Part shown: positions 19,610-57,114 of the stretch, one piece after another
How the letters are laid out: every line of letters starts with the position of its first letter
How positions within the stretch are numbered: the stretch's first letter is position 1
Source of the DNA: an uncultured bacterium
Lineage (GTDB): Bacteria; JAGOEH01; CAYLKS01
Length of the DNA: 64,000 bases
Direction: 5' to 3'
NCBI GenBank assembly: GCA_964384205.1
Contig: CAYLKS010000004.1
Span: 13,301 to 77,300 of the forward strand
Notes under the pieces: model-generated
Database searches by the model: none
Told to the model about the DNA's origin: nothing
What the model saw: only the letters and a program-made list of their open reading frames with translations
Program-made: the position numbers and the translations under genes

Positions 19610-19767
19610 TTTATTTAATAATTAAAAATTTTTCTTGATTTTTTTAGTTATCTTTGTAAAATAGAATTATGGACGTTTTTTTTATAATTAACATAAATTA
19701 TGGAAAATCTTAATTTTATATTCACAAAGGTGGTGTAATATTTATCCAAAAAATGGAAGGAGTGAGT

Positions 19768-22545
19768 ATGCGTAAGTTTTTTTCTGTAGTTTTGTTTTTA
19801 TTTTTTTTAGCAAGTAGTATTTGGGCACAACAAGGTAAGGTTCAGGGTAAAGTTGTTGATGTTAATTCCGGAGAACCATTAGTTTCAGCTAATGTTATGA
19901 TTGTTGGTACTAATTTGGGTACTATAACAGATGAAAATGGAAAATTTGTTTTGGAAAACGTTCCTGTAGGTAAGCAAAAAGTTAAGGTAAGCTATATCGG
20001 GTATAAAGAAAAAATTATTGAAATTGATGTGAAAGCAGGAGATGTTGTTACTGTAAATTTTGAACTTGAGGAGAGTGCTATTAAAGGTCAGGAAGTTGTA
20101 ATTGAGGTAAACAGAGCGGTAGAAAGAGAAACCCCGATTGCTTTTAGTAATATTGATCAAGAGAAATTGAAAGAAAAGTATACGGCAGAAGATGTTCCTA
20201 TGTTGATTAGAGAAGTACCAGGTGTTTTTGCAACAACATCAGGTCTTGGCGAATCTGAGGTTTATGTCCGCGGATTTAATGGTGAAAGAGTGCAAATTTT
20301 GATTAATGGCATTCCTGTTAATGATCCTGAAAGTCAGATTGTATATTGGTCAAACTGGACTGGATTATCAAGTAATGCTAAGTCTATACAGGTTCAAAGA
20401 GGTGTTGGTTCTTCTTTATATGGCTCTGGTGCTTTTGGTGGTTCTATTAATATAAGTACAATGGGGCTTTCTCCTAATAAACAAATTATTTTTAGATCTT
20501 CTGTTGGTTATTATACTACAAAAGGTGTTGATGGTGGAGAAAATGACGGTAAAGTTGCTGATGGTAAAGGTGGATTTGAAGATTATAATCCAATCACTTA
20601 TATGACAAGTGTTAGATACAATTCTGGTTTATTATATAATGGTAAACTTAATTTTAGTGTTTCTTTGGAAAGAAAAGGTGGAGAGTACTATATTAATGGT
20701 ACAAAATATGATGGTTGGTCTTTTGGTTTCGAAGCTCAAAGTATTTTAGGAGCGCATACATTATATCTAAGCTTTATTGGTGCACCTCAGCATCATAATC
20801 AAGCAAGAACGGTTCAGGACCCAGATTTATTTAAAACATTAGGTAGAGAATATAATAGAAATAATCATTCATATCAGGAAAATTATTATTTTAAACCTCA
20901 ATTATCTTTGAGAGATGAATGGACTATTAATGAGAATACTTATTTATTAACAAATGTATTTGCAACTATGGGTAGAGGAGGTGGAAAATATTTAAGAAAT
21001 GATTATTTTGATGTTGAAACAGGGGAAAATACTTTTAAAACTGTTAAAGAATATTATGATGATAAATATTTTGGAAGACATGCAAGGTTTGCTTATGAAG
21101 TAACAGGTGGCAAGGCTGTATTAAAGGGTTATGATCCTGATAATCACACTTTTAAAGGCCAGAATGTTTCTTATGGCACAAATTTAATTACAAATACTTA
21201 TAGTCATAGCTGGAGAAATGATAGCCATAATAACCATAAACAAATAGGTTTTAATACTGCTTTTCAACAAAAACTCAATAAACAATTGAAATATGTTGTA
21301 GGTGGTGAGGCAAGATATTGGGTTGCAGATCATTTTGCAGAATCTGAAAATTTTAGATGTTCCGATCCAGACGGAAATGTTATAACTTATAAAGAAGTTC
21401 AGAGAAGATATGATTATACTGGTAAAGTTCTAAATATGTCTGTTTTTGGTAGGGTAAACTATTCTCCAATTGAAAAAGTCAATATTATGGCAGACGTTCA
21501 ATATGCGAGATATTCTTCAAAAATAGAAGAAAATCGTATTAGAATTTTTGATTTTGAAGCCGGTAAATTTACAGATTGGTACTATTATCCAACGAAAGAT
21601 TTAGTTGATGATAATGGCAATAGAAAATATAAAGATAGTGATTATGAAAGAACTTTTAATTTTGTAAGTCCTAAATTTGGTATTAACTATAATCTTTCAA
21701 AATCTGTAAATTTTCTTGCAAATTATTCTATTTCTTATAAAGAACCAAGAGCGGCTGATTGGTATGATAGAACAAGAGGTCCTGGTGCTAACCAACCAGA
21801 TGGAAAGGATTTAGACCCTGAAAAACTTGAAAATATAGAATTCGGTTTTGGTTTTAATAAAAAACAGTTTGGGCAATTTAAAAATGTAAAATTATCTGCT
21901 AATTATTATATTATGAATTTTTCAGATAAGATCGAACGTGTAACTGACATGAGAGATGAAAGAATTACTATAAATGCCGGTAAAGCAAAACATCAGGGGT
22001 TAGAATTGTATGCAACAGCTGATATTTCAAAGTTTTATTTTAGTACCTCTTTAACATTGGCAAAAAATAGATGGCAGAAAATGGATGTAAAAGAAATTTT
22101 TTATGAACCGGCAGATTCTGTTGTTGATAAAGTAGTTCCTTTCTCTCCTGAAAAAATGTTTCATGCTAATGTAGGATATAATATTAGTAAAAAATTAAAG
22201 ATTGGTTTTGCCACAAGATGGTGGGATAATTATTATGCAACATATAGTAATACATATCAAACTTATAAACGAGGTGATGATGGGAAATGGCAAAAAGATA
22301 AAGTTGTTTCCTCAAAAATTGATTCTTATTTCTCTTTAGATGCTTCAATTTCTTATAAAATTAAATTAAAGGGAACAGATGTTAATTTTAGATTGAATTT
22401 GAACAATTTAACAAATCATGAAAATATTGTAAAAGCTGCGTATTCTAAAGATTATAATAGAAATGATTATTATCCGGATTATAAGGTTTATGTTGTTCCA
22501 GGTCCTTTATTTAATGTATTCTTTACCATGGAAGTAGTTTTTTAG
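19768..22545 (+). CDS. TonB-dependent outer-membrane receptor with an N-terminal carboxypeptidase-regulatory-like domain
   Basis: It has a signal peptide. The CarbopepD_reg-like N-terminus is QGKVVDVNSGEPLVSANVMIVGTNLGTITDENGKFVL, followed by a plug region (FVRGFNGERVQILINGIPVND). The large Tyr/Gly-rich barrel ends in an aromatic residue (F). The ATG at 19768 follows the RBS GGAGG. Confidence 0.75.
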   Translation: MRKFFSVVLFLFFLASSIWAQQGKVQGKVVDVNSGEPLVSANVMIVGTNLGTITDENGKFVLENVPVGKQKVKVSYIGYKEKIIEIDVKAGDVVTVNFELEESAIKGQEVVIEVNRAVERETPIAFSNIDQEKLKEKYTAEDVPMLIREVPGVFATTSGLGESEVYVRGFNGERVQILINGIPVNDPESQIVYWSNWTGLSSNAKSIQVQRGVGSSLYGSGAFGGSINISTMGLSPNKQIIFRSSVGYYTTKGVDGGENDGKVADGKGGFEDYNPITYMTSVRYNSGLLYNGKLNFSVSLERKGGEYYINGTKYDGWSFGFEAQSILGAHTLYLSFIGAPQHHNQARTVQDPDLFKTLGREYNRNNHSYQENYYFKPQLSLRDEWTINENTYLLTNVFATMGRGGGKYLRNDYFDVETGENTFKTVKEYYDDKYFGRHARFAYEVTGGKAVLKGYDPDNHTFKGQNVSYGTNLITNTYSHSWRNDSHNNHKQIGFNTAFQQKLNKQLKYVVGGEARYWVADHFAESENFRCSDPDGNVITYKEVQRRYDYTGKVLNMSVFGRVNYSPIEKVNIMADVQYARYSSKIEENRIRIFDFEAGKFTDWYYYPTKDLVDDNGNRKYKDSDYERTFNFVSPKFGINYNLSKSVNFLANYSISYKEPRAADWYDRTRGPGANQPDGKDLDPEKLENIEFGFGFNKKQFGQFKNVKLSANYYIMNFSDKIERVTDMRDERITINAGKAKHQGLELYATADISKFYFSTSLTLAKNRWQKMDVKEIFYEPADSVVDKVVPFSPEKMFHANVGYNISKKLKIGFATRWWDNYYATYSNTYQTYKRGDDGKWQKDKVVSSKIDSYFSLDASISYKIKLKGTDVNFRLNLNNLTNHENIVKAAYSKDYNRNDYYPDYKVYVVPGPLFNVFFTMEVVF

Positions 22546-23598: not shown

Positions 23599-24771
23599 TT
23601 ATTTAATTTTTATTACAATTAAGGTTATATCATCATCAGGTTTCCGTGTCCCTAAAAAAAGCCCAAGTTCTTTTAATATATTTTCTATAATAGCTTTGGG
23701 GCTTTTATCTTTATTGTTTGATATTGTAGCTTGTAGTCTTTTTTTCCCAAATTGCTCTTTATTATAGTTTTGAGCTTCAATTATTCCGTCAGTGTAAAAC
23801 AATATAATATCTCCTGAATCTATATTAATATCATAATTTTTATATTTACTAGTTGGAAGAAGCCCTAAGAAGAAACTGGGAGCATCAATTTTTAATATTG
23901 TATTTTTTTTTGCACTATAAATTATAGGAGGGTGATGTCCGGCATTGGAAAATAGAAGTTTTTTTTCATTTATGTTTATATCACAATATAATGCGGTTAC
24001 GAAAAAATCGGTACCACCTACTAATTTATATACGTTAGAATTTAGTTTATCTAATAAATTATTTGGGGACATCCCCCCCATATCTAATATACTATTATAG
24101 AATGATTTTATTGCGGCGGTAATTAATGCAGATGGAGTACCATGTCCTGAAACATCTGCTATAAGTAATTGCAATGAATTCTGAAATATATTAAAATCAT
24201 AAAAATCCCCGCCAAGTTGGGTAGATGGTTGATAATAGAATGATATTTCAAAGCCATTATATTCCTGGGGGATATTACTGGGCAAAAGAGTTCTTTGTAA
24301 TTCAGCAGCTAATTCTAATTCTCGTTCTAAAAGTTTTTTTTGTTCTAATATTTTGTTTCTATTTTCTATAGTTGTTTTTAATAAGTTATAATAATTAATA
24401 GCATTTTTTACTTTTAGAGGTAATTGAATATTTAAAATATTATTCGAAAGAGGCTTTTCTAAATAATCAAAGCACCCAAAATTTAATGCCTTTTTTATGG
24501 ATTCTATATCTGATAAGGCTGAACTTACAATAATAGGGATATTTTTATATTCTTTTGTATTTTTTATCCAATTTAAGAACTCAAATCCATCCATAATAGG
24601 CATTGTTAAATCTAATATTATTAGATCAATTGCTTGGTCTTCTGTAATTTTTTTTGCAACCAGACCGTTTTCTGCTTCTAATATATTATAGTTATATTTT
24701 TTTAATGTAAAAAATAAAATTTTTCTATTGAGTTTTTCATCATCTACGATAAGTACACTTTTTTTATTCAT
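23599..24771 (-). CDS. Response-regulator receiver fused to a PP2C-type Ser phosphatase (RsbU/SpoIIE-like)
   Basis: The receiver has the acidic pocket VLIVDDEK, the phospho-Asp context LIILDLTMPIMDG, and the conserved Lys. The C-terminal PP2C motifs are GGDFYDF ... ADVSGHG ... DGIIEA. Confidence 0.75.
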   Translation of the reverse strand: MNKKSVLIVDDEKLNRKILFFTLKKYNYNILEAENGLVAKKITEDQAIDLIILDLTMPIMDGFEFLNWIKNTKEYKNIPIIVSSALSDIESIKKALNFGCFDYLEKPLSNNILNIQLPLKVKNAINYYNLLKTTIENRNKILEQKKLLERELELAAELQRTLLPSNIPQEYNGFEISFYYQPSTQLGGDFYDFNIFQNSLQLLIADVSGHGTPSALITAAIKSFYNSILDMGGMSPNNLLDKLNSNVYKLVGGTDFFVTALYCDININEKKLLFSNAGHHPPIIYSAKKNTILKIDAPSFFLGLLPTSKYKNYDINIDSGDIILFYTDGIIEAQNYNKEQFGKKRLQATISNNKDKSPKAIIENILKELGLFLGTRKPDDDITLIVIKIK

Positions 24772-24783
24772 ACAATATCCTTA

Positions 24784-25662
24784 TTAGAGGTCTTTATATT
24801 TTATTAATGTAATTTGGTTACCTTTATCATTATATTCAAATTTATCAAAAAAAGTTTTTATCATCAGAATGCCTCGTCCATGCTCATTTAATATATTTAT
24901 ATCGTCATTTATTGTTTTTTTCCAGTTAAATCCTTTCCCCTCATCTTTGATAACAAATTTTACATAATTTTCTGTTAAATGGTAATCTATAACAACCTTT
25001 CGTTTTGAGAAAACTGGATGTTTTTTTCTTTCAGATAATAAATCATAATATTTATTATCTTGAATAGCGTGCTTTTTAGTATTCCCATCAATTTCAAAAT
25101 TCCCATGTTCTATAGCATTAATAATTACTTCATAAAGAGCAAGTTCAATTTTTTTTATATTTCGGGTTATTTTTTTTGCATTGAAGGTTAATTGATTGAT
25201 TACACTGGGGATTTTGGATAGATCATTTTCTAAAATTATTCTTTTTTTTTCTTCTATTAATGTTTCAGTATCGTAGAGATTTATTATATTGCGATAGAGA
25301 AAAATAGCTTTATTTATTAAAGTGTTCCATTCTTCTTGTTTATCAGGGATTTCAAAACAATAGAATAATTTTTTAGAATATAGTGTATATAATATATCCT
25401 TTTTGATTTTTTTTACAAGAGCTATAGGGAGTACATCTAATAAAAGATTTCCAGAATGAATCATTTCAAGTAGTTTGGATATATTGGGGAGTGATTCGTT
25501 TTCATAATAATATAATAAGATATTTACTTTTTCTTTAAGAATTATATCAAAAGCTTCTTCTATGTTATTATTTACAATACTTTCTATTTCATATTTATGA
25601 GCATTTTTTTTTATTGTAGTTACTATTGGATGATTTTCTTGAGTGAACAGCAAAACCTTCAT
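24784..25662 (-). CDS. Pseudo-receiver fused to an RsbW-like GHKL Ser-kinase/anti-sigma-factor-type ATPase domain
   Basis: The N-terminal ~120 aa have a receiver-like fold but lack the acidic pocket and phospho-Asp (Y in that position). The C-terminus (LYEVIINAIEHGNFEID ... KDEGKGFNW ... EHGRGILMIK) has the N, G1 and G2 boxes of RsbW/SpoIIAB-type kinases. Confidence 0.55.
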   Translation of the reverse strand: MKVLLFTQENHPIVTTIKKNAHKYEIESIVNNNIEEAFDIILKEKVNILLYYYENESLPNISKLLEMIHSGNLLLDVLPIALVKKIKKDILYTLYSKKLFYCFEIPDKQEEWNTLINKAIFLYRNIINLYDTETLIEEKKRIILENDLSKIPSVINQLTFNAKKITRNIKKIELALYEVIINAIEHGNFEIDGNTKKHAIQDNKYYDLLSERKKHPVFSKRKVVIDYHLTENYVKFVIKDEGKGFNWKKTINDDINILNEHGRGILMIKTFFDKFEYNDKGNQITLIKYKDL

Positions 25663-25682: not shown

Positions 25683-26741
25683 TTAGATTTCATTTAATAT
25701 AAAAGGGATTTTAAGTAATGGTACTATTTTTTTGACAGCGTTTAATTTAATTGCTTCTTTAGGCATTCCAAAGACCACACAGCTTTCTTCATCTTGAGCA
25801 ATAGTAAAAGCTCCCTTTTCTTTTAATGCAAGCATTCCTTTAGCTCCATCATCCCCCATACCTGTTAAAATAACTGCAATAGCATTACTACCTGCGGAAT
25901 TAGCTGCAGATTTAAATAAAACATCCACACTCGGTTTATGTCTATTTATAGGTGGTCCATCTTTTACTTCCACATAATAAGTAGTACCTGAGCGTTGCAA
26001 TAACATATGCTTGCCACCGGGAGCAATTAGAGCAAGGCCTTGTTCTAATTTATCACCATTTTCTGCTTCTTTTACTCTAATAGGACAGGTGCTATTTAAT
26101 CTTTCTGCAAAAGCTTTAGTAAATCCAACTGGCATATGTTGTGTAACTACTATTGGTTTGACACCTGTTTTTAATCTTTTGAAAATAGTTTCTATAGCGA
26201 CAGTTCCGCCAGTAGATGCTCCTATAACGATTACAGGATCGGTTTTTATTATTTTAGTTTTATAATCTTTTATATATTCATCTACATCTATTTTTTCTTT
26301 TAACCCGGTTTTAAACTTGCTATCTAATGTTTTTTGTGGAAGTATTTTTGCTTTGACTGCCATTTTCAATTTTTCTATAATTTCATTTTTTAGAGAATGT
26401 AGCTCTATAGGAGCAGAAGGTTTTTTTATGAAGTCTATAGCACCCAGCTCTAAAGCTTTCATTGTTATTTTTGAATGTTTATCTGTTAGAGAACTAACCA
26501 TTATAACCGGGGTTGGATATTTGTCCATAAGTTTTTCCAGAAAAGTAATGCCGTCCATTTTGGGCATCTCTACATCTAAAGTAATAACGTCAGGTTTTCC
26601 TTCTTTTACATATTTTCGAGCTTCATAAGGATTTGACGCTTCTCCAATAACAATAAAATCAGGATCGCTTAAAATAATATTTTTTAAAACAGTTCTTGTT
26701 AAAACTGAATCATCGATAATTAATACTTTTATTTTACTCAT
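25683..26741 (-). CDS. cheB: Chemotaxis response-regulator protein-glutamate methylesterase
   Basis: The receiver is KVLIIDDS ... DVEMPKMDG. The CheB methylesterase domain is GASTGG ... TQHMPVGFTKAFAERLN ... catalytic region. Length 352 aa. Confidence 0.85.
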   Translation of the reverse strand: MSKIKVLIIDDSVLTRTVLKNIILSDPDFIVIGEASNPYEARKYVKEGKPDVITLDVEMPKMDGITFLEKLMDKYPTPVIMVSSLTDKHSKITMKALELGAIDFIKKPSAPIELHSLKNEIIEKLKMAVKAKILPQKTLDSKFKTGLKEKIDVDEYIKDYKTKIIKTDPVIVIGASTGGTVAIETIFKRLKTGVKPIVVTQHMPVGFTKAFAERLNSTCPIRVKEAENGDKLEQGLALIAPGGKHMLLQRSGTTYYVEVKDGPPINRHKPSVDVLFKSAANSAGSNAIAVILTGMGDDGAKGMLALKEKGAFTIAQDEESCVVFGMPKEAIKLNAVKKIVPLLKIPFILNEI

Positions 26742-26744
26742 CTT

Positions 26745-28217
26745 TTATATCCTTTTAGGGTTAACTATTTCAAATATAAAAGTTATTCCATTTTTTTGTT
26801 CATAATAAAATTTTATTTTTAAAATATCTAATAAAAATTTAATTATATATATTCGTAAAGTCTTCAAATCAACCCTTTCTTCTTCTATATTAATATTGTC
26901 CAGTATAGTAAAATCATTAATAAGTTTATTATAAGAGTCTTCATTTATTCCATCTAAATTAAATTTAATATAAATTGCATTTGAGCTTTCGTCAATATTA
27001 ATTTTTATTTTTTTGAAAAAATTTCTGTGAATAATTATTATTTCCATAAAATAAGTTATCAAATAATAAAATAAGTCAAAATCGAATAAAATTTTATTAT
27101 TTGCAATATTTTGTTCTATCGATATTGGAAATTTAGTAATTCTTTCCTTTTCAAGAAAGTTATATATACAATCTTCAACAATTCTTATAACATCTATTTC
27201 TTGAGATTTAGCTTTCGACCTGAAAGAACTTATATTTAGCAGATATAATAGATCTTCTATAAATGAAATCATTTGATTATAAGAAGACATGCTTTGTGTG
27301 AGTGAAATTGTAATATCAGTATGCTCTAAAGTTTTTAAATAATCGAATATATTTGCAATATTTATTAGAGGAATCTTGATATTTTGAGACAAAATAGATA
27401 TAAGCTTTTTTTGAATTAGTAGTAAATTTTCTAATGTCTTATTTGTATTTTTTAGTTCTTTTTCATATAAAAATCTTTTTAAGTGAACATTTATTCTGGA
27501 AATAAATTCCTCATATAAAAATGGTTTTACAATATAGTCATTAATCCCGGCATTGAAAGCATCTAACATATTTTTTTTATCATTGTTGCTTGCTGTCATT
27601 ATAATAGGTGTATTGGTGTACTCTGATTTATTTCGTATTTTTTTGGTTAGTTCAATACCATTAATTTCTGGTAAAAATAAATCTATAATAAAAAGGTCAA
27701 TTTTGTTTTGATTCATAATTTTTATAGCTTCTAAAGGATTATCTGTGGAAAGAGTTTTATATCCATGCCGATCTAATATATATTTTATCATAGAATTTAT
27801 TAAAGGAGAGTTAATGACGACTAATATATTTATATCTTTAGAATTATTTTTAGCATAGAAGAAGTCCCTGACAAAATTATATAAATTATCTTTTATTTCA
27901 TTTTTATTAAAAAAATGAATTGCTCCTACATTAAAGCCTCTTATTCTTGAAAAAAAATTATCTTTACCTGTTATCAATATAACAGGGGTATTGAGCATTT
28001 TTTTATTTTGTTTGATTTTTCTGCACAATTCAAAACCATCCATTCCTTTCATTATAATATTTATAGTTATAAAATCTAAATTTGTTTTGTTGATAATATC
28101 TAAAGCATCAAATCCATTACTTGCCTCTATTATATTTGTGTCTTCCAGTTTTTCTAATTCTTCTTTTATTAGAAAACGAGCTATTTTACTATCATCAACA
28201 ATTAGTACATTTTTCAT
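26745..28217 (-). CDS. Tandem-receiver protein with a degenerate (His-less) histidine-kinase-like C-terminal region
   Basis: REC1 has the Asp pocket (LIVDDSK) but Asn at the phospho-acceptor site (DFITINIIMKGMDG). REC2 keeps the acceptor Asp (LFIIDLFLPEINGIEL) but lacks the DD pocket. The HisKA-like helix reads ILSQNIKIPLINI (Gln where the His of SHELRTPL would be). A poorly conserved ATPase-like tail follows. Confidence 0.55.
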   Translation of the reverse strand: MKNVLIVDDSKIARFLIKEELEKLEDTNIIEASNGFDALDIINKTNLDFITINIIMKGMDGFELCRKIKQNKKMLNTPVILITGKDNFFSRIRGFNVGAIHFFNKNEIKDNLYNFVRDFFYAKNNSKDINILVVINSPLINSMIKYILDRHGYKTLSTDNPLEAIKIMNQNKIDLFIIDLFLPEINGIELTKKIRNKSEYTNTPIIMTASNNDKKNMLDAFNAGINDYIVKPFLYEEFISRINVHLKRFLYEKELKNTNKTLENLLLIQKKLISILSQNIKIPLINIANIFDYLKTLEHTDITISLTQSMSSYNQMISFIEDLLYLLNISSFRSKAKSQEIDVIRIVEDCIYNFLEKERITKFPISIEQNIANNKILFDFDLFYYLITYFMEIIIIHRNFFKKIKINIDESSNAIYIKFNLDGINEDSYNKLINDFTILDNINIEEERVDLKTLRIYIIKFLLDILKIKFYYEQKNGITFIFEIVNPKRI

Positions 28218-28219
28218 TT

Positions 28220-28825
28220 TTATTCAAAAAAGTTTATTCTTTCATTATCTTTATGTGCTGTTTGTTCTTGTTGTAATCGTTTTACATAAGCCTGTTCTTG
28301 TTTTATTTCTTGTTGAATCTCTTTTGATACAGTGCTTCTTAATTTTTTTACAAGAACTTTATAAGTATCTGTGAAAAATAGAATTTTTCTTCCCTGATAA
28401 CCACCAACATCTTGGTTTACAATAGGAATCTTTTCTAATTTTAAAAAGGTTACAGCAAATCTAATATTATTATCTACAACATTCCCTTCTCTTGTTTTGT
28501 AATTTAAAACATGTCCACCACCAAATACTTTTGCTTTTAGATTTTCTTTTTTTCCACCCTTTTTTATAATGTCATTTATTAAAACTTCCATAGCGAAAAT
28601 ACCATAACGTGCTGATGGTTCCATAAATATACGTTCATCTCTGAGATCTCCCACCAGCATAAAATGATTCATTCCTGCAATATTATTCACTTCATCATAT
28701 AAACATACAGCAATGCAAGAGCCAAGTACTGTGGATATTATTTCATTATCCGTAGAAGTATAATATTCACCTGGATTAATGACAACCATTGTTTTGTTAA
28801 ATCTTTTTTCAAACTTTTTATACAT
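28220..28825 (-). CDS. cheD: Chemoreceptor glutamine deamidase CheD, with a ~40-aa charged coiled-coil C-terminal extension
   Basis: The CheD motif GSCIAVCLYD with its catalytic Cys, plus NHFMLVG, is present. The 201-aa length is ~40 aa longer than typical CheD; the tail is KKLRSTVSKEIQQEIKQEQAYVKRLQQEQ. Confidence 0.8.
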   Translation of the reverse strand: MYKKFEKRFNKTMVVINPGEYYTSTDNEIISTVLGSCIAVCLYDEVNNIAGMNHFMLVGDLRDERIFMEPSARYGIFAMEVLINDIIKKGGKKENLKAKVFGGGHVLNYKTREGNVVDNNIRFAVTFLKLEKIPIVNQDVGGYQGRKILFFTDTYKVLVKKLRSTVSKEIQQEIKQEQAYVKRLQQEQTAHKDNERINFFE

Positions 28826-28827
28826 CT

Positions 28828-29658
28828 TTAAACCTTCGTGTATATTGTGCTTTTTATATATTTAAAATTTTTAAAATTTAATAATGATTCACTATGCCCA
28901 ATAAAGATTAATCCATCATCTTTTAGATATTGATAAAATTTGTTTAATACATGTCTTTTCAGGTCATTATCAAAATAAATCATTACATTTCGGAAGAATA
29001 TAAAATCAAATTTTACTTTTATTCTATAGTCTTCTAGTTTAAAATTTAGTTTTCTAAAAGAGATTTTTCCCCTTAATAATGGTTTTACTTTATAATGAAC
29101 TTGCCCATTTAATTCAATTTTTTCAAAATATTTTTGTTTAAATGATTGGGGGACAGGATATAATAGCTGTTCTCTATAAATTCCTTGAGATGCTTTTGTT
29201 AGTATTTCTGTATCTATATCAGTTGCCAATATTTTAAAATCCCAGCCAGAATGCTTTGATAAAAAATTGTCCAGTACCATTGCAATTGTATATGGTTCTT
29301 CTCCAGAAGAACATCCTGCACTCCATACAAGTATTGTATAAGGATTATTGTTGGCAATTATTTTGGGGAGATGCTCTTTTTCTAAAAATTCGAAATGGTG
29401 TTTTTCGCGAAAGAAATCAGTTTTGTTAGTAGTTATTCTATTTATAAAATTGATCATTTCTTCAGAATTGTGCCCCTGATTTTTGATATAGTTTAAATAT
29501 TCAGTAAATGAGTTAATATTTAATTCTTTAAGTCTTCGAGTTAATCTTGCAATTATTAAACTTTTTTTTGCATCGCTTATTTTTATTCCAATATTATCAT
29601 AGATAATTTTTTTAAATTCTTTAAAATCTTTATCAGATATAGTATCTGGAATTAACAT
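28828..29658 (-). CDS. cheR: Chemotaxis protein methyltransferase
   Basis: The N-terminal all-helical domain is followed by the SAM motif WSAGCSSGEEPYTIAMVL. Length 276 aa. Confidence 0.85.
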   Translation of the reverse strand: MLIPDTISDKDFKEFKKIIYDNIGIKISDAKKSLIIARLTRRLKELNINSFTEYLNYIKNQGHNSEEMINFINRITTNKTDFFREKHHFEFLEKEHLPKIIANNNPYTILVWSAGCSSGEEPYTIAMVLDNFLSKHSGWDFKILATDIDTEILTKASQGIYREQLLYPVPQSFKQKYFEKIELNGQVHYKVKPLLRGKISFRKLNFKLEDYRIKVKFDFIFFRNVMIYFDNDLKRHVLNKFYQYLKDDGLIFIGHSESLLNFKNFKYIKSTIYTKV

Positions 29659-29661
29659 GTA

Positions 29662-31017
29662 TTAGGCACCTATTTTTTCACTTATTTCTTCAAAAATGAT
29701 TTCAAATAGTTTCTCAAGATTAATTAATATAATCATTCTTTTATCTTTTTTCCCAACACCGTATAAAAATTCTGTATTAATCTTTGTATGAGCAACTATC
29801 GGCTCCTGTACTTCTTTCATGTCAAATTCAACAATATCTGAGACAGAATCCACAACAATCCCTATAATTTTGTCTAAAACTTCTATTACTATAATTACAG
29901 AATACTTAGTAATTTTTATATTATTCATATTAAATTTTTTTCTTAAATCGAAAATAGGGATAACATTTCCTCTTAAATTTAACATTCCTAATATATAATC
30001 TGGTGTATTAGGTATAATATTAGGTTGATGGAAGCCAATAATTTCTTGTATTTTTAGTATTTCAATACCATATTCTTCATTATCCATAATAACAGTTATG
30101 TATTCTCTTATATCGTTTAATGGTTGCTCTTCTTCAATGTTTTGTACCTCATATTCTTCTGGTATTTTTTCTATTGTTTGTTTTTGAGATTCTTCTAAAT
30201 TTTCTTTTTTAAATTTTAATTCTTTTTTGTCTTGATTTGTTTTTAATATATCTTCTTCTTTTAGTTGTATAATATTATCTTCTTTTATCTTTAGTGTATA
30301 GGCGACCATGTCTTTTTCCATTGGTGAAAAATATAATATAGATATTGGTAAGTGTTCTTCAGTATCTTCAGATAAATCCTGGATTAGATTTATATTTATT
30401 TTATTATCTAAAATTTCACCGAAGTTTGTAGCTTCTTTTACAAAGCTCAAGGGATTAATGCCCTTTTTTTCTAAATCATTAATTAAATCTATATTGATAA
30501 CAAAAACATATCCTGTTTTAAATTTTGTTTTCAAAATAGCAATATTTACATCAAAATTATAAGAACAGTTATCTCTTTCAAATTTGGTGGTTGTATTCAA
30601 TTCTTGAATTAATTCCTTGTCTCCACTTTCCTTCAAAGAATTATCAAGTAATTGAAGGTATTCTGTTATATCCATATTATTGGATTCTTCTACATTATCA
30701 AGTAATTCTTTAAGCCGATCAATAGATTTTAATAAAGCATTCGATATAGAAGATGTCATATTTATTTTTCTATTTCTAATTAAATCAAGAATATCTTCCA
30801 TTTTATGTGATAGTTTTTCTATATTATGAAGTTCAATGAAAGACGCTCCACCTTTTATTGAATGTATTGCTCTGAATATATTATTAATTAAATCAGAATC
30901 AAATTCTCCTGCTTTTAACTGTTGTTCAAATGATAATATATCATTTTCAATATTATTTAAATGTTCAGAAGATTCTGCAACAAAGTCTGGTATTAAATAG
31001 GAAAAATCTTCAGCCAT
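29662..31017 (-). CDS. Hpt(P1)-linker-CheW(P5-like) protein lacking the CheA dimerisation and ATPase domains
   Basis: The N-terminal Hpt helix has the phosphorylatable His in FRAIHSIKGGASF (canonical HTLKG). An acidic/coiled linker of ~170 aa follows. The C-terminal CheW-like domain is GIEILKIQEIIGFHQPNIIPNTPDYILGMLNLRGNVIPIFDLRKKF. No H-box-independent ATPase motifs are present. Confidence 0.65.
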   Translation of the reverse strand: MAEDFSYLIPDFVAESSEHLNNIENDILSFEQQLKAGEFDSDLINNIFRAIHSIKGGASFIELHNIEKLSHKMEDILDLIRNRKINMTSSISNALLKSIDRLKELLDNVEESNNMDITEYLQLLDNSLKESGDKELIQELNTTTKFERDNCSYNFDVNIAILKTKFKTGYVFVINIDLINDLEKKGINPLSFVKEATNFGEILDNKININLIQDLSEDTEEHLPISILYFSPMEKDMVAYTLKIKEDNIIQLKEEDILKTNQDKKELKFKKENLEESQKQTIEKIPEEYEVQNIEEEQPLNDIREYITVIMDNEEYGIEILKIQEIIGFHQPNIIPNTPDYILGMLNLRGNVIPIFDLRKKFNMNNIKITKYSVIIVIEVLDKIIGIVVDSVSDIVEFDMKEVQEPIVAHTKINTEFLYGVGKKDKRMIILINLEKLFEIIFEEISEKIGA

Positions 31018-31030
31018 AATATCCCCCTGT

Positions 31031-31498
31031 CTATAATAAGTCTAATTCTTCTTGAAATAAAATTTTGTCAATATTAACAATTAGTACAAAATAATTCTCT
31101 TTTTTTATTACGCCAGCAATATATTCTCTATCTATATTGGAATTTGTAATTAGGCTAGGTGTTGGTTGAATATCTTCCTTACTAAAATTGATTATATCGG
31201 AAACAGAATCAACAATTATACCTATTAATTTATTTTTAATACTTAAAATTAAAATAACAGTGAATTTATCATATTCTTTTTCAGGGAGATTAAATCTACT
31301 CCTGATATCTATAATCGGTACTGCTTCTCCACGTAAATCTATAATTCCTTTCACAAATGGAGGCGAATTTGGAATTCTTGTTATAGGTTTATATCCGATA
31401 ACTTCTCTTATTTTTAATACTTCAACAGCATAATATTCATTATCTAAAGTAAAAATAATATACTGTGATGTTTCTTTTATAACATCATTGGATTGCAT
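31031..31498 (-). CDS. cheW: Chemotaxis coupling protein CheW
   Basis: At 155 aa it is a single CheW domain: YAVEVLKIREVIGYKPITRIPNSPPFVKGIIDLRGEAVPIIDIRSRF. Confidence 0.8.
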   Translation of the reverse strand: MQSNDVIKETSQYIIFTLDNEYYAVEVLKIREVIGYKPITRIPNSPPFVKGIIDLRGEAVPIIDIRSRFNLPEKEYDKFTVILILSIKNKLIGIIVDSVSDIINFSKEDIQPTPSLITNSNIDREYIAGVIKKENYFVLIVNIDKILFQEELDLL

Positions 31499-33605
31499 AG
31501 TTCCCCCTATTTATATTTACAAAGGCTAAATTTTCCAGACCGTAGATATCAAGGATTAGTGAAAGATTGCCATCTCCTAAAATGGTAACACCAGCAGTGC
31601 CTGGTAGCTGCATAAAATTTTTATCCAGAGATTTTATAACAGCTTGTTGTTCTCCAATTATATCATCAACCATTAATCCAAACTTTTTATTTCTGCTTCC
31701 TTCTATAATAATGATCAATGCTTTTGCAGGATCTGTTTTTTCTGTTTCTAAATTGAATAATTTATGTAATCTTACTAATGGTAAATATTCTCCTCTTACT
31801 TCTATCAATTCGCCTTCTTTTTCTATTGATTTTATATTTTCTTGCTGAGGTTTTATGCTTTCTATAATAGACATTAGGGGGATCGTAATATATTCTTTAC
31901 CAACTTTTACGATCATACCATCGATAATTGCTAATGTTAGAGGAAGTTTTATTTTAAATGTAGTTCCTATATCTTTTTGAGATTCTACTATAATTGAACC
32001 TTTTAAATCTTCAATATTCTTTCTTACTACATCTAATCCAACGCCTCTACCACTAATTTCTGTGACTTTTTCAGCTGTAGAAAATCCAGGCATAAATAGA
32101 AAACTATAAATATCTTCATCGGAAAATTTTTGATTAGGAGAAATGAGCCCTTTTGATATCGCTTTTTGATATACTTTTTCTTTATCTATACCTCTGCCGT
32201 CATCTTTTATTTCTATAAATATACTGCCCTCTTGTTGATATGCTTTTAATTGAATTAATCCTTCTTCTGGTTTTCCTTTTTTTCTTCTTTCTTCAGGGGA
32301 TTCTATGCCATGATCTACAGAATTCCTAATTAAATGTTTTAGAGGATCTCCCAGTTGTTCAATAACATTTTTATCTAATTCTGTTTCTGTTCCATACATT
32401 TCTAATCTAATTTTTTTATTTAATTCTTTTGACATATCTCTTACTATTCTATAAAATCTGTTGAATGTCCCCTCCACAGGAATCATTCTGACTTTCATTA
32501 CCTGTTCTTGAATTTCTCTTGAAAATCTAATAAGATCCTCTAATGCATTTGCCATATCATGATTTTTAATAAAATGATTATCTTTGGAAATCTGGTTTAG
32601 CCTTGCCATAGCTATAACCATTTCGCTAACTAAATTAACTAATTTGTCAAGTTTTTGTGTATCTACTCTGATAGTAGAAGCCTTTTTTATTTTTTGTCCA
32701 GTTTTTTTTATGACTTTATTACTCATAGGCTTCTCCTTTATAGGAATTTGTTTTGTTTTGTTCTGGTTATTATCATTTATATTAGTTTGTGGCTGAACTT
32801 GGACTGTTACAGACTCTTGAGTTTTCGCAGGAATATCTTGAGTTTTTGTAATATCTTCTTTTTTTTCTATATTTTTAAGATATTCATTTGTTATATCTGA
32901 TATTTTAATTTTATTATTATCATCCATTACAAAAATAAATATATTTTCAATTTGACTTATCGGTTCTTCAGATTTTAGAATTATTTCCCACGATATATAA
33001 TGTTTATATATATCAATTTGATCAAAAGCTGGCAGATTATCAATATTTGTTATTGTTTGGACAATTTCTCCCACTTCTTCAAGTTCATAGAAAAACATAA
33101 TAGGATTTGTACCTGTTTCATATATATGATTATTTAAAGAAATATTTATTTTATAGAACTTTAAACCCTTATCAGTTTTTTTGTCGATTTTAATATTTGT
33201 TTTCTCTTCTTTTTGTTCATTTGTTCCCAGAAAATTATTTGCTTGTTTTATTAATTCATTAAATGTTGGTTCTAATTTTGTAAAATCTTCGTTGAAATTC
33301 TTATCTGTTACAAATTTTAAGACATCTTCCACCTGAAATAGAAGATTGATTATTTCTTCATTTAAAGGAAGTTCGCCATTTCTTATAACATCTAATAAAT
33401 TTTCTATATGGTGGCAAAAATCTGACAATTTTGTATAACCAACCAATGCCGTACTGCTTTTGAAAGTGTGAATCGCTCGGAATAATGCATTTATGTTTTC
33501 GTTAAAATCTATATTTTGTTCTAAATTAAGGATTGCTTCCTCATACTGATTTAGTAAATCTTCTGCTTCCTGAAAAAAAATTTCTTTAATTTGATCCTGG
33601 TTCAT
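31485..33605 (-). CDS. cheA: Chemotaxis histidine kinase CheA (P1-P5 complete)
   Basis: The P1 Hpt has His in FRAIHTFKSS. There is a P3 dimerisation helix and a P4 GHKL domain (IRNSVDHGIE ... IKDDGRGID ... SGRGVGLDVV). The C-terminus is a P5 CheW-like domain. Length 706 aa. Confidence 0.9.
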   Translation of the reverse strand: MNQDQIKEIFFQEAEDLLNQYEEAILNLEQNIDFNENINALFRAIHTFKSSTALVGYTKLSDFCHHIENLLDVIRNGELPLNEEIINLLFQVEDVLKFVTDKNFNEDFTKLEPTFNELIKQANNFLGTNEQKEEKTNIKIDKKTDKGLKFYKINISLNNHIYETGTNPIMFFYELEEVGEIVQTITNIDNLPAFDQIDIYKHYISWEIILKSEEPISQIENIFIFVMDDNNKIKISDITNEYLKNIEKKEDITKTQDIPAKTQESVTVQVQPQTNINDNNQNKTKQIPIKEKPMSNKVIKKTGQKIKKASTIRVDTQKLDKLVNLVSEMVIAMARLNQISKDNHFIKNHDMANALEDLIRFSREIQEQVMKVRMIPVEGTFNRFYRIVRDMSKELNKKIRLEMYGTETELDKNVIEQLGDPLKHLIRNSVDHGIESPEERRKKGKPEEGLIQLKAYQQEGSIFIEIKDDGRGIDKEKVYQKAISKGLISPNQKFSDEDIYSFLFMPGFSTAEKVTEISGRGVGLDVVRKNIEDLKGSIIVESQKDIGTTFKIKLPLTLAIIDGMIVKVGKEYITIPLMSIIESIKPQQENIKSIEKEGELIEVRGEYLPLVRLHKLFNLETEKTDPAKALIIIIEGSRNKKFGLMVDDIIGEQQAVIKSLDKNFMQLPGTAGVTILGDGNLSLILDIYGLENLAFVNINRGNYAIQ

Positions 33606-33617
33606 AACTGCTACCTT

Positions 33618-34001
33618 TTATGTTCTGATAAATTTTTTTGCTACTTTTATTAACATTTCAGGAGAAAAGGGTTTTAAAAGCCATCCCGCTGCTCCAGCTT
33701 CTTTTCCTTTCATTTTCATTTCGTTTTGGGATTCTGTTGTTAGTACTATAATCGGAATGAATTTAAATTCACTTTGTTTTACAGTTTTGATAAATTCAAT
33801 TCCATCCATTACAGGCATATAAATATCACTGAAAATTAGTGATACCTTTTCATTATTTGCATATATTTCTTTTAATTTCTCGATTCCTTTTTGACCATTT
33901 TCTGCCTCATATACTTTATAACCAGAGGATTCTAATATAGCTCTAACACTGGCTCTTAAAGTAACCGAATCATCAACAATTAAAATTATAGGTTTATCCA
34001 T
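33618..34001 (-). CDS. cheY: Single-domain response regulator CheY
   Basis: The 127-aa protein has ILIVDDS, the acceptor region FSDIYMPVMDG, T in VLTTES and K in LLKPF. It lies directly downstream of cheA. Confidence 0.85.
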   Translation of the reverse strand: MDKPIILIVDDSVTLRASVRAILESSGYKVYEAENGQKGIEKLKEIYANNEKVSLIFSDIYMPVMDGIEFIKTVKQSEFKFIPIIVLTTESQNEMKMKGKEAGAAGWLLKPFSPEMLIKVAKKFIRT

Positions 34002-34014
34002 ATAAATATCCTTT

Positions 34015-34278
34015 TTAAATAAAAAACTTCAACAACCCCATTTTTTTTAATAATTCTTGAAAATTATTATCTTTAATATCAAATTTAGTTTTTGGATACG
34101 TCTTTTTAAAAGACATCAAGATCTGTAAATTTGCCATATGTATTTCTTTTATTTTATCAATTATTATTAAACAGGCATCTTTGTTCTTTATTTCAGCTAA
34201 ATTTTTATAAAGTGTATCGACATCTTCTATTGCTAAAGAATCATGCAGTCGAATATTATTAGCCTCTATTTCTATCAT
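34015..34278 (-). CDS. Small STAS-like (anti-sigma-antagonist-like) protein lacking the phosphorylatable Ser
   Basis: This 87-aa protein (MIEIEANNIRLHDSLAIEDVDTLYKNLAEIKNKDACLIIIDKIKEIHMANLQILM) has the hydrophobic periodicity of a STAS/SpoIIAA fold but no DSSG motif. Its stop overlaps the upstream gene by 4 nt. Confidence 0.3.
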   Translation of the reverse strand: MIEIEANNIRLHDSLAIEDVDTLYKNLAEIKNKDACLIIIDKIKEIHMANLQILMSFKKTYPKTKFDIKDNNFQELLKKMGLLKFFI

Positions 34279-35489
34279 TGTTTCTTCCTTAGGGTAAATA
34301 ATTTATCAAGTCTAAACGAAGAAAATAACATATAAATATCATCATTGAGATTTACAATTTCTATTTTGATCCCTTTTGAATCCAGAGTTTTATAAAGAGA
34401 TAATATTTTGCCAATACCAGAGCTTCCAATAAAAGGAACTCCTCCGAAGTCTAAAACTAAAGTAGATTCAACCTCATCAACTATCTCAGTAAGATATTTT
34501 TTTAGAGTTTCTGATTGAGAATTATCAATTTCTCCTTTGATTTTTACTATTAACTGATCTCCTATTTTTTCTTTGTTAATTACCATATTATAACTCCTTT
34601 TTGGATTAATTTTTTTTATTAATTTTACTTCATTTCCTTTGTTATTATAAACAATTTCATCAAAGGCGTATCTCATTATTCTTATACCACGCCCATTAAA
34701 CTGATCGGAATCAATATCCGATTCATATAAATATTTTTGCCAGTCAAAGCCTTCCCCTTGATCCTTTATACTAAAGATAAGAGTACTATCTTTTTTATTG
34801 AACTCCATTGTAATTGTAATTTGTTTATTTATAGTATCGTCATTTAACAAACGCGATATTATTAACTCGTCAAAATTTCCATTTTGTAAAGCTTTTCGTT
34901 TTGTTTCATAATCTATTTCTAAGTTGCCATGTTCAATAGCATTCATCAATGCTTCAAATAGTCCCACTCGTATTTTTTCTGCTTCATCTTTTAATATATG
35001 TTTAAATAGGAAAAGAAGTTGGTTTATTGTAGGATGTATTAGATTAATATCATTGTTTATACTAACAATTCTTTTTTCATATTCTATTGATTGGGTATCA
35101 ATGGTAGACATATCTATATACTGCCTTTGCAATATTATCTTGCTAAATAAGTCTTTTAGTTCACTAAAATTAAATGGTTTTGATAAAAAGAATGTTGCTC
35201 CACATTCCATTGCTTTTATTATATTTTCTTTATTTGAATATCCACTTAATCCTACAATTGTGATGTAATTATCTATTATTTTTGTTTCTTCAATAATTTC
35301 AAAGCCAATTTTATTATTATTTAAAATCAAATCAATTATTACTGTTTCTGGAGAGAATTGTTTAACTTTTTTAAAAAAATCTTTAGGCTCATTAGATAAT
35401 ATTGGATTGAAACCTAATTTAATTAAATATTTTTTCATAATATTTAGAATGTTTATATCATCATCTAATACTATCACATTTTTTTTCAT
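34275..35489 (-). CDS. Three-domain fusion: receiver + RsbW-like GHKL Ser kinase + STAS (anti-sigma-factor antagonist) with a phospho-Ser motif
   Basis: The receiver is canonical (VIVLDDDI, VIIDLIL, LSKPF). The GHKL region is LFEALMNAIEHGNLEID ... KDQGEGFDW ... GRGIRIMR. The C-terminal STAS carries FGGVPFIGSSGIGKIL, matching the SpoIIAA/RsbV DSSGLG phospho-Ser site. The start was chosen at the Met preceding KKNVIVLDDD; the listed ORF begins 16 codons upstream. Confidence 0.65.
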   Translation of the reverse strand: MKKNVIVLDDDINILNIMKKYLIKLGFNPILSNEPKDFFKKVKQFSPETVIIDLILNNNKIGFEIIEETKIIDNYITIVGLSGYSNKENIIKAMECGATFFLSKPFNFSELKDLFSKIILQRQYIDMSTIDTQSIEYEKRIVSINNDINLIHPTINQLLFLFKHILKDEAEKIRVGLFEALMNAIEHGNLEIDYETKRKALQNGNFDELIISRLLNDDTINKQITITMEFNKKDSTLIFSIKDQGEGFDWQKYLYESDIDSDQFNGRGIRIMRYAFDEIVYNNKGNEVKLIKKINPKRSYNMVINKEKIGDQLIVKIKGEIDNSQSETLKKYLTEIVDEVESTLVLDFGGVPFIGSSGIGKILSLYKTLDSKGIKIEIVNLNDDIYMLFSSFRLDKLFTLRKKQ

Positions 35490-35729
35490 ATATTTTCTCT
35501 CCATTAATATAATAAGTATATAAATAAATATTGTCAAGTTTTTTTGTAGAAATTATTTTTCTTTAGAGATTAATGTTTTAAAAGAATTGTATGGTACTTG
35601 ACTTATTTATATTTAGTAGCTATATTAAAATTATGTTGATAGTTAAAGTAGTATGTATATGGAACAATTACTTAGTGTATATCAAAAAATAGTAATGGTA
35701 AAAATTGTTTAAATTGGAGTGTATGGAAT

Positions 35730-36086
35730 ATGCGTTTTTTTAAAAAAAAAGATGATAGAAATTTAATGGACTTTATACCTGAGAAACTTGTTCAATCTCA
35801 AACAAATGAAGAAAATTTAGAAGTGTTAATTGTGCCTAAATTTAGAGATTTCTTTTTTGGCAAATTGTTACAACCTAAATTGCCTGAAAAAAAAGCTTAT
35901 TTTAGAATTAGTCTTGATGAATTTGGCACTTTCGTATGGAACTTGATTGATGGTAAGAGAACAGTTTTTGATATTTATAAAGAGTTTGAGAAAAAATATC
36001 CAGAAGAAGAGCAAAGTTTGCAAAGATTATCAAGATTTATTCAACTTTTGAAAGAAAGTAAATTTATAAAATATAACAATGTATAG
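35730..36086 (+). CDS. PqqD-like RiPP-recognition-element (RRE) family small protein
   Basis: This 118-aa ORF has a core (RISLDEFGTFVWNLIDGKRTVFDIYKEFEKKYPEEEQSLQRLSRFIQLLKESKFI) that aligns well with the PqqD consensus (LNETAAxIWELxDGxRTVxEIxxxLxxxYP ... VxxFLxxLxxxGLI). Its stop overlaps the rlmI start by 8 nt. Confidence 0.5.
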   Translation: MRFFKKKDDRNLMDFIPEKLVQSQTNEENLEVLIVPKFRDFFFGKLLQPKLPEKKAYFRISLDEFGTFVWNLIDGKRTVFDIYKEFEKKYPEEEQSLQRLSRFIQLLKESKFIKYNNV

Positions 36087-56568: not shown

Positions 56569-57114
56569 TATTGAGTCAGTAGTGCTATGAAATTTTAATT
56601 GTATTTGCCGGTAATTTTATTAATAAATTTGGTTCTTTTTAATATATAAAGTGGAGAGTATTTGATTTTTTTAAATATTTATTTTTTTTGTCAAAAAAAT
56701 GTAAAATTTTATGTTATCTTTTTGACGCTTTTTTATATAATTTAATTATTTTAATATTCTTAAATGTGATCTATTTTTTTTATTTAAAAAGCTGCAAAAT
56801 TTATTCAATCTTTACTTTTTTTATAAATATTTTTAGGAATTTAGAGTTAAAATAAATATGATATTATAAGTTTTTGTTTTTTATTGAGTTAAGTTTTTAA
56901 TATTAAAATTTGTATAATTATTAAAAAAAAATCTTGACACGTTAGATTTTATTTATATATTTAAAATATGAGTAAAAATTATTTAAAATAATAAGAAAAT
57001 TACTTAAAAATATTAAACAGGAGGAGTGAATGGTATATTCTTTCAGTCCGTTAAGTTGTGTTAATGTATTAAGTTATATTATTGTTTCATGATAAGAGGA
57101 GGATGTATAATTGT

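Follow-up and report, generated by a model that had tools for sequence, protein, structure and literature searches.

A CheW-type coupling protein with a CheA-type P1 module, encoded beside a complete CheA in a receptor-less partner-switch che operon

Results

The hpt-cheW gene is complete and codes for no kinase core

We analyzed a 64,000-nucleotide stretch of DNA from an uncultured bacterium (assembly GCA_964384205.1, contig CAYLKS010000004.1, positions 13,301 to 77,300; G+C content 27.8%), which we refer to as the window, and focus here on a gene in a chemotaxis (che) operon that codes for a protein of 451 residues, which we refer to as Hpt-CheW. From its N-terminus, this protein consists of a histidine phosphotransfer (Hpt) domain of the kind that forms P1 in the histidine kinase CheA, a folded domain at the position of P2, a disordered tether, and a CheW-type coupling domain (Table 1). 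The open reading frame (ORF) is uninterrupted, has an ATG start, and is on the minus strand, which a previous sequence-only reading of this DNA had not stated. As that reading had it, the gene lies between cheW and cheR, and all three are on the same strand; the start of hpt-cheW is 13 nt past the cheW stop, and its stop is 3 nt short of the cheR start.

In Pfam searches, Hpt (residues 11-104, E 4e-14) and CheW (residues 305-439, E 5e-35) were the only matches in the 451-residue protein, and there was no match to the dimerization domain H-kinase_dim (P3) or the ATPase domain HATPase_c (P4) at E<=0.1. The same run detected Hpt, H-kinase_dim, HATPase_c and CheW in the adjoining CheA of 706 residues. 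We also made a hidden Markov model (HMM) of P3 and P4 from ~90 CheAs, and, with all heuristic filters off, this HMM gave negative scores only in the six frames of 29362-31317. Moreover, P1 and the CheW domain are only ~200 residues apart, and the folded α/β domain takes up 110 of them. The earlier claim that neither P3 nor P4 is present is therefore borne out by both searches, and no cryptic kinase homology came to light in the linker.

The sequence-only reading had raised the possibility that the gene is a frameshifted fragment of a longer CheA. We rejected a frameshifted or truncated CheA based on the intact reading frame preceded by a strong Shine-Dalgarno sequence, the conserved orthologues, and the absence of P3/P4 in any frame. 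In particular, 14 loci and ~13 clusters at 50% identity, from independent assemblies and several phyla, share the same architecture with a length of 430-500 residues, and because of this recurrence Hpt-CheW is not a frameshift artefact. Accordingly, we consider an artefact of annotation or assembly refuted, with a probability close to nil.

The P1 domain looks functional

An AlphaFold2 model of the full protein, calculated from 15 family sequences (mean predicted local distance difference test (pLDDT) 79), has a helical P1 (residues 6-131), an α/β domain (residues 143-252, pLDDT 70-89), a disordered stretch (residues 260-299, pLDDT ~30) and a CheW fold (residues 303-450). The histidine in AIHSIKGG that the sequence-only reading had singled out is His52 in FRAIHSIKGG. 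The family profile matches the CheA P1 structures 2ld6, 1tqg and 1i5n with E-values of 1e-20 to 1e-24, and in the alignment with E. coli CheA, H52, K55, H71 and E74 correspond to H48, K51, H67 and E70, i.e. the phospho-accepting His together with its network residues. None of the four varies among the 15 aligned family sequences, which are only 30-53% identical, and the Hpt-CheW family retains the P1 consensus FRA[IV]HSIKGG more faithfully than the cognate CheAs do. Thus, judged by the intact phospho-accepting His and K/H/E network, this P1 looks functional, and because the phospho-site is invariant and the consensus well kept, selection on phosphorylation is indicated.

The adjoining CheA has an Hpt domain of its own (Pfam E 2.5e-16), in which the four residues of the P1 network (His, Lys, His, Glu) are all present; its motif reads HTFKSS as opposed to the consensus HSIKGG. 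The intact P1 domains of the two proteins support the earlier claim that the cluster encodes two Hpt donors.

The C-terminal domain is of the CheW type

The sequence-only reading had described the C-terminal domain as a CheW-like P5 domain. A CheW-type domain is present, but HMM and PDB profile scores speak against the P5 type. This domain is 38% identical to the neighboring stand-alone CheW (E 3e-35), and its match to P5 of the neighboring CheA has an E-value of 0.004. Likewise, the family profile matches E. coli CheW (2ho9) at E 1e-47 and P5 of T. maritima CheA at ~1e-5. All 15 family sequences score 130-162 bits on an HMM of stand-alone CheW proteins versus 18-32 bits on an HMM of P5; for the protein in the window, the scores are 144 and 32 bits, respectively. 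Five residues, E325, G344, R349, G350 and G386, are the same in all members of the family alignment. We take them to correspond to E38, G57, R62, G63 and G99 of E. coli CheW, by our own mapping rather than with an alignment tool, and presumably these are sites of known importance for binding to receptors and P5. By these scores, the C-terminal domain is CheW-type and not P5-type, and, judged on its sequence, the protein is a CheW with a grafted P1-P2 module and not a CheA from which the kinase was deleted.

A folded domain and a charged tether connect P1 to the CheW domain

The two domains had been described as joined by an acidic linker. This description holds for a charged tether of ~50 residues (~253-304), in which 16 of 52 residues are Asp or Glu and 10 are Lys or Arg, but not for residues 143-252, which form a folded and conserved domain. 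In relatives, the tether is ~45-110 residues long and acidic/Lys-rich or Pro/Ala-rich, and such a length and composition mark the segment, by sequence, as a flexible tether; both vary across the family.

Modeled alone, the middle domain has a pLDDT of 86.5 and a predicted template modeling score (pTM) of 0.80, with a β-α-β-β-α-β core after an N-terminal hairpin and a helix; G169 and G200 in this domain are invariant in the family alignment. Several comparisons connect it to CheA. In BLASTP, residues 12-210 align with residues 10-189 of the neighboring CheA (31% identity, E 2e-15), and NCBIfam CheA profiles extend along the protein to residue ~280. In hhalign, the alignment of the middle domain matches the region after P1 of 89 CheAs with a probability of 96% (E 2.7e-9), and an HMM of the domain matches over its full length in CheA and CheA-REC kinases (REC, receiver domain) of Holophaga, Planctomycetota, Desulfobulbaceae, Melainabacteria, Calditrichaceae and Lentisphaerae. 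The Pfam models for P2 (PF07194) and the CheY-binding domain (PF09078) matched none of 13 family members at E<=10; the limited sensitivity of both models is known (PMC10542144). The profile of the domain gave chance matches only against PDB sequences, and a Foldseek search of PDB with the model gave nothing significant. We conclude that the middle domain is homologous to the post-P1 domain of many CheAs and probably P2-like, with a core of four strands and two helices that may correspond to the P2 fold and with a putative role in docking.

Hpt-CheW proteins form a rare family of chimeras

Besides one identical protein (P0001), a word-indexed search returned a relative at 52% identity and roughly a dozen others with local BLASTP identities of 32-42%. 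Each of these proteins has Hpt and CheW domains and 428-507 residues, and their labels are generic or absent. When 1.84 billion representatives (50% identity) were scanned in full with HMMER, at least ~13 full-length matches in a single stretch (460-487 residues) and a few fragments were among the top 150 matches considered, and the rest were proteins with multiple CheW domains. The family is rare, and this count is a lower bound. A survey of GTDB with one genome per species found proteins with Hpt, middle and CheW domains and without P3/P4 in Thermodesulfobacteriota, Desulfarculus, Desulfarculales, Dethiosulfatarculus sandiegensis (strain SPR, an isolate and the sole carrier in culture that came to light) and a metagenome-assembled genome (MAG) labeled Clostridia. 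"CheW" proteins of ~505 residues from Holophagae/Mesoterricola (P0016-P0034) match with the CheW domain alone.

On the cognate CheAs, the family HMM of P1 scores 49-75 bits and that of the middle domain 17-34 bits (partial); on CheA and CheA-REC proteins of other phyla, the two HMMs match over their full length and score 100-140 and 54-76 bits, respectively. By these HMM scores, rather than by a phylogeny, the module of P1 and middle domain is not a recent copy of the N-terminus of the neighboring CheA but is of another lineage. Because the module scores higher on CheAs of other phyla than on the cognate CheA, Hpt-CheW appears to be a chimera of a CheA-type P1-P2 module and a CheW, and the difference in lineage suggests a distinct docking specificity.

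A shorter variant is present in a metagenomic locus (L089, 6330-8936) that codes for a methyl-accepting chemotaxis protein (MCP), a CheA of 547 residues without Hpt, an Hpt-CheW protein of 319 residues (P0040), CheY and CheX. As in the window, P0040 has a CheA-type P1 (FRCIHSIKGD) on a CheW-type domain, whose scores on the HMMs of CheW and P5 are 106 and 27 bits, respectively. It is encoded directly after cheA. Unlike the protein in the window, it has no middle domain, its partner CheA lacks Hpt, and MCP, CheY and CheX genes are present while partner-switch genes are absent. This pair appears to be a natural bipartite CheA with its sole P1 on a CheW-type domain. Because a CheA without Hpt adjoins P0040, a P1 on a CheW-type domain can, by sequence, be the sole encoded phosphorylation site for a CheA.

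Two further loci have unusual gene models. In a Desulfobacteraceae MAG (L009, 9227-11130), two tandem ORFs of 362 and 272 codons each code for Hpt and a middle domain without a kinase or a CheW domain; they may code for free P1-P2 proteins or reflect an assembly problem near the contig end. In the relative with 52% identity, cheA was called as two genes in one assembly (L081, 7316-9534), coding for 161 residues without a Pfam match and 561 residues without Hpt, and as a single gene for a CheA of 719 residues with Hpt for the same sequence in other assemblies (L082 and L083, 7375-9534). Gene calling or assembly accounts for this difference, which could falsely imply a split CheA.

The operon combines che and partner-switch genes

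In 11 of 11 distinct loci of relatives, the gene order is STAS, cheY, cheA, (cheW), hpt-cheW, cheR, cheD, cheB and the genes for REC-PP2C/RsbW proteins. One to three STAS genes come first in these loci, and an RsbW-like kinase and a REC-PP2C phosphatase come last, in some of them as a fused REC-HATPase_c_2-SpoIIE protein; a REC-PP2C protein is encoded at the operon end in 10 of the 11 complete relatives. The adjacent CheA has an Hpt in every relative for which Pfam domains or an HMM match are on record. In D. sandiegensis (L004, 9995-11377) and a Desulfarculales MAG (L043, 9995-11380), hpt-cheW directly follows cheA, and because a separate cheW is absent, Hpt-CheW is the sole coupling protein encoded in these operons.

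The partner-switch layout in the window differs from that of the relatives: it has an RsbW-like kinase of 292 residues, a separate REC-SpoIIE protein and a REC-RsbW-STAS fusion, whereas the relatives have free STAS proteins. The 87-codon ORF after the fusion gene lies where relatives encode a second, divergent STAS protein; its counterpart has a weak STAS_2 match in L084 and a STAS_2 match in L087. A protein of 490 residues encoded between cheD and cheB is in none of the relatives' clusters examined. By eye, its REC1 has Asn at the phospho-site (ITINIIM), its REC2 lacks the DD metal-binding pair, and its C-terminal half is degenerate and HisKA/HATPase-like with the conserved His missing (LSQNIKIPL). 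The sequence-only reading had counted at least five receivers as acceptors. Pfam finds six receiver domains in the cluster, but by eye the acidic site is canonical in four of them, i.e. those of CheY, CheB, REC-SpoIIE and REC-RsbW-STAS.

None of the loci examined (L001-L006, L043, L081-L087) has an MCP gene. A six-frame motif scan for a receptor gene in the window was negative, and the large ORFs near the cluster code for TonB-dependent receptors and not for MCPs. Thus, the cognate receptor must be encoded elsewhere, even though the operon encodes CheR, CheD and CheB, which act on receptors. Two of the TonB-dependent receptors are SusC-like (19753-22545 and 57082-60297, both on the plus strand) with CarboxypepD_reg and Plug domains and, in the first, a β-barrel. 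Together with the G+C content and with a TyrS that is at best 74% identical to any protein in the collection searched, with "Candidatus Delongbacteria" as its best named match (70%), they make an uncultured bacterium of the FCB group the probable source of the DNA. Divergent from the che operon, and beside a gene for an RlmI-like 23S rRNA methyltransferase, is a gene for a small PqqD-family protein (35730-36086, plus strand).

Table 1. Features of Hpt-CheW and of the surrounding operon (positions in the window)
Feature	Position	Strand	Support
ORF of Hpt-CheW, complete, 451 aa: P1 (Hpt), P2-position domain, disordered tether, CheW-type domain	29662..31017	minus	
Shine-Dalgarno sequence GGGGGA, 4 nt 5' of ATG	31022..31027	minus	seen in the sequence itself
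P1/Hpt five-helix domain, residues 6-131	30625..31002	minus	Pfam Hpt E 4e-14; AlphaFold2 helices 6-131, pLDDT 84-95
Codon of His52, predicted phospho-accepting His (E. coli CheA His48)	30862..30864	minus	
Folded α/β domain at P2 position, residues 143-252	30262..30591	minus	
Disordered charged tether, residues 253-302	30112..30261	minus	pLDDT ~30
CheW-type coupling domain, residues 303-450	29668..30111	minus	Pfam CheW E 5e-35
Stand-alone CheW, 155 aa	31031..31498	minus	Pfam
Full CheA, 706 aa (Hpt, P2-position domain, H-kinase_dim, HATPase_c, P5); presumed kinase	31485..33605	minus	
CheY-like single-domain receiver	33618..34001	minus	Pfam
87-aa ORF, at position of divergent second STAS in relatives	34015..34278	minus	no Pfam match here
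REC + RsbW-like kinase + STAS fusion, 420 aa; partner-switch component, operon head	34275..35537	minus	Pfam
CheR methyltransferase	28828..29658	minus	Pfam
CheD	28220..28825	minus	Pfam
490-aa protein, two atypical receivers and tail like degenerate histidine kinase (by eye)	26745..28217	minus	
CheB methylesterase with receiver	25683..26741	minus	Pfam
RsbW-like anti-sigma kinase (HATPase_c_2), 292 aa, receiver-like N-terminus without acidic site	24784..25662	minus	
REC-PP2C (SpoIIE) phosphatase response regulator, proposed main acceptor	23599..24771	minus	Pfam

Discussion

We suggest, with somewhat more confidence than doubt, that Hpt-CheW is an array-anchored second phosphodonor that is charged in trans by CheA and feeds the receivers of the partner switch. 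In this model, the CheW-type domain would insert the protein into the receptor/CheA/CheW lattice, where the flexible tether of ~50 residues would let P1 reach P4 of a neighboring full-length CheA. P4 would then phosphorylate His52 in trans; phosphate for His52 would most plausibly come from this full-length CheA. The P2-position domain, with its lineage unlike that of the cognate CheA, would recruit some of the receivers encoded in the operon, with REC-PP2C and REC-RsbW as the likeliest, and phosphorylated P1 would pass the phosphate to them. By analogy to the HptB/HsbR system discussed below, these two proteins are the most attractive candidate acceptors. As a consequence, one receptor-controlled kinase would have two outputs, with CheY and CheB served by P1 of CheA and the STAS/RsbW/PP2C switch served by the tethered P1. 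We favor this model because of the conserved phospho-site and CheW interface, the loci in which Hpt-CheW is the sole CheW protein, the lineage of the putative docking domain, the literature on liberated P1 and the bipartite locus L089. With regard to the literature, Garzon & Parkinson (1996; cited in PMC10542144) are reported to have found that P1 of E. coli CheA, once liberated, works in trans.

Several points weigh against this model. Each of its mechanistic steps is inferred from sequence, and the acceptor is a guess by analogy. The cognate CheA has its own P1 and P2-position domain, and an extra donor is not obviously needed. In L084, a PatA-type receiver protein takes the place of the terminal REC-PP2C. 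In Shewanella oneidensis, a Che system is linked to CrsR/CrsA without an Hpt-CheW protein (PMC9855816). Finally, no receptor gene is present in the window. A more specific proposal, which we regard as possible but put forward tentatively, is that the coupling protein itself is the branch point: a CheW-anchored P1-P2 module would be charged by the CheA of the array and be selective for REC-PP2C and REC-RsbW, with P1 of CheA serving CheY and CheB, and this protein would replace CheW entirely in some Desulfarculales. By means of two physically separate phosphodonors, one receptor array would then govern a sigma-factor partner switch as well as adaptation or motility-type signaling.

The same anatomy would also suit a phosphate buffer or sink, in which the tethered P1 mainly takes phosphate back from phosphorylated CheY or another receiver and passes it on to speed up signal termination. 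P1 is intact, none of the 12 cluster ORFs scanned codes for a homologue of CheZ, CheC, CheX or FliY, and S. meliloti is an established case of reverse transfer, in which phosphate passes via the P1 of CheA to a sink CheY (cited in PMC10542144). Our data fit reverse and forward transfer alike, P1 of CheA would be able to do the same job, and a dedicated docking domain of another lineage would be superfluous for it; we regard a sink as plausible but rather unlikely. The model of the sequence-only reading, in which Hpt-CheW is the obligatory half of a split CheA in the style of CheA3/CheA4 and supplies the sole functional P1 to the neighboring kinase, draws on an Hpt and a CheW-like domain without a kinase, which is the architecture of CheA3 at the level of Pfam, on the existence of the bipartite system in L089, and on the P1 of the CheA in the window, which reads HTFKSS and not HSIKGG. 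However, this CheA has an Hpt of its own in the window as well as in all relatives that could be checked, and its P1 network residues are present in the window; moreover, CheA3 keeps degenerate P3/P4 regions and a P5-type domain, while P3/P4 are gone here and the domain is CheW-type. Because the partner CheA has its own P1, Hpt-CheW would be an extra donor and not the obligatory half of a split kinase, and we hold the latter to be improbable.

Hpt-CheW could also be a plain second CheW with an N-terminal module that is structural or vestigial, e.g. for spacing or stabilizing a cytoplasmic array, and takes no part in phosphotransfer. Such a role would agree with the CheW domain being the best conserved by score, with Hpt-CheW being the sole CheW in two clusters (L004 and L043), and with the room that a receptor-less operon leaves for an unusual array. 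It is at odds with the invariance of His52 and its three partners at 30-53% identity and with a P1 consensus that is better kept than in the cognate CheAs, and we give it even less credence than the split kinase.

How phosphate is routed to the correct receiver is poorly understood in Che pathways with non-motility outputs. With a functional-looking P1 on a true CheW, the Hpt-CheW family is a simpler and cleaner case than CheA3. If the tethered P1 is indeed a receiver-selective second donor, this would be a novel means by which one chemoreceptor array divides its output, and it would provide a missing phosphodonor link between Che systems and the partner-switch control of sigma factors. Thus, the main value of the family is that of a tractable model for one array possibly feeding two outputs. 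The parts and the principle of trans-phosphorylation are already known. What appears to be undescribed and uncharacterized is a true CheW that carries P1 together with a P2-position domain, beside a complete CheA and in a receptor-less partner-switch operon; our full-text search of the literature for Hpt-CheW fusions matched only the survey of CheA proteins. There is also a consequence for annotation, in that existing labels for such proteins are generic or absent and surveys that define CheA by HATPase_c miss them. For instance, the CheA core according to Berry, Andrianova & Zhulin comprises Hpt, dimerization, HATPase_c and CheW domains, and because CheA was defined there by the presence of HATPase_c, their survey did not cover such proteins.

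To our knowledge, R. sphaeroides (Cereibacter) CheA3, which is ~1,100 residues long, is the only kinase-less CheA-like protein that has been studied experimentally. Hpt-CheW resembles CheA3 in having an N-terminal CheA-type P1, a C-terminal CheW-like domain and no active kinase, and in being encoded in a che operon with a kinase; the family profile also matches the P1 structure of CheA3 (3kyi, E 5.5e-15). CheA3 is phosphorylated in trans by its partner kinase, as we suggest Hpt-CheW would be. The sequence-only reading had equated CheA3 with exactly P1 and P5, but the 794-residue spacer of CheA3 contains two degenerate Hpt domains, P2, P3 and P4, and the partner CheA4 is without P1 (PMC10542144). 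By contrast, the protein in the window has 451 residues, no remnant of P3/P4 and a CheW-type C-terminus, and a complete CheA is encoded alongside; the lack of P1 in CheA4 makes CheA3 obligatory, whereas the CheA in the window has a P1. Porter and colleagues reportedly attributed, in 2008, CheY6-P phosphatase activity to the spacer of CheA3. This spacer is absent from Hpt-CheW, and a CheA3-like role as a CheY-P phosphatase is therefore not supported.

In the survey of CheW-like domains by Vass, Bourret & Foster, the architecture class of CheA3 has a P5-type domain, and CheA.XI and CheA.XII, which have a CheW-like domain without HATPase_c, are read as split CheAs (10.1101/2022.05.07.491035, 491037). 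In this survey, the CheW-like domains of CheA.XI and CheA.XII are Class 3, i.e. of the CheA type, CheA.XII is tied to F4 systems, and CheW-like domains fused to Hpt are mentioned solely among rare architectures that were not analyzed (10.1101/2022.05.07.491035). As far as these descriptions go, the Hpt-CheW family is set apart from CheA.XI and CheA.XII by its CheW-type domain and its distinct partner-switch operon.

Partner switches with related components are known from other bacteria. HptB of P. aeruginosa phosphorylates the receiver of HsbR, a REC-PP2C-kinase protein that governs the STAS protein HsbA (PMC6482189), and CrsR/CrsA are encoded in the S. oneidensis che1 locus (CheY-CheA-CheW-CheR-CheD-CheB) together with two receptor genes, SO_2117 and SO_2123/Aer2 (PMC9855816). 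The cluster in the window shares with HptB/HsbR/HsbA and CrsR/CrsA the combination of a REC-PP2C-anti-sigma-kinase regulator and a STAS antagonist, and its relatives encode fused REC-HATPase_c_2-SpoIIE proteins as in CrsR/HsbR. HptB is a free single-domain Hpt protein that is charged by hybrid sensor kinases, while the Hpt domain described here is of the CheA-P1 type and fused to a P2-position (putative docking) domain and a CheW. The gene order in the window resembles that of F7 clusters such as S. oneidensis che1, although che1 is without hpt-cheW; at about the position of this gene, che1 presumably has a receptor gene. Finally, Hpt-CheW is similar to CheV (CheW-REC) in that a CheW-type domain is fused to a phosphorelay domain, which puts a phosphotransfer partner of CheA inside the array. 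In CheV, this partner is a C-terminal receiver, whereas in Hpt-CheW it is an N-terminal phosphodonor Hpt.

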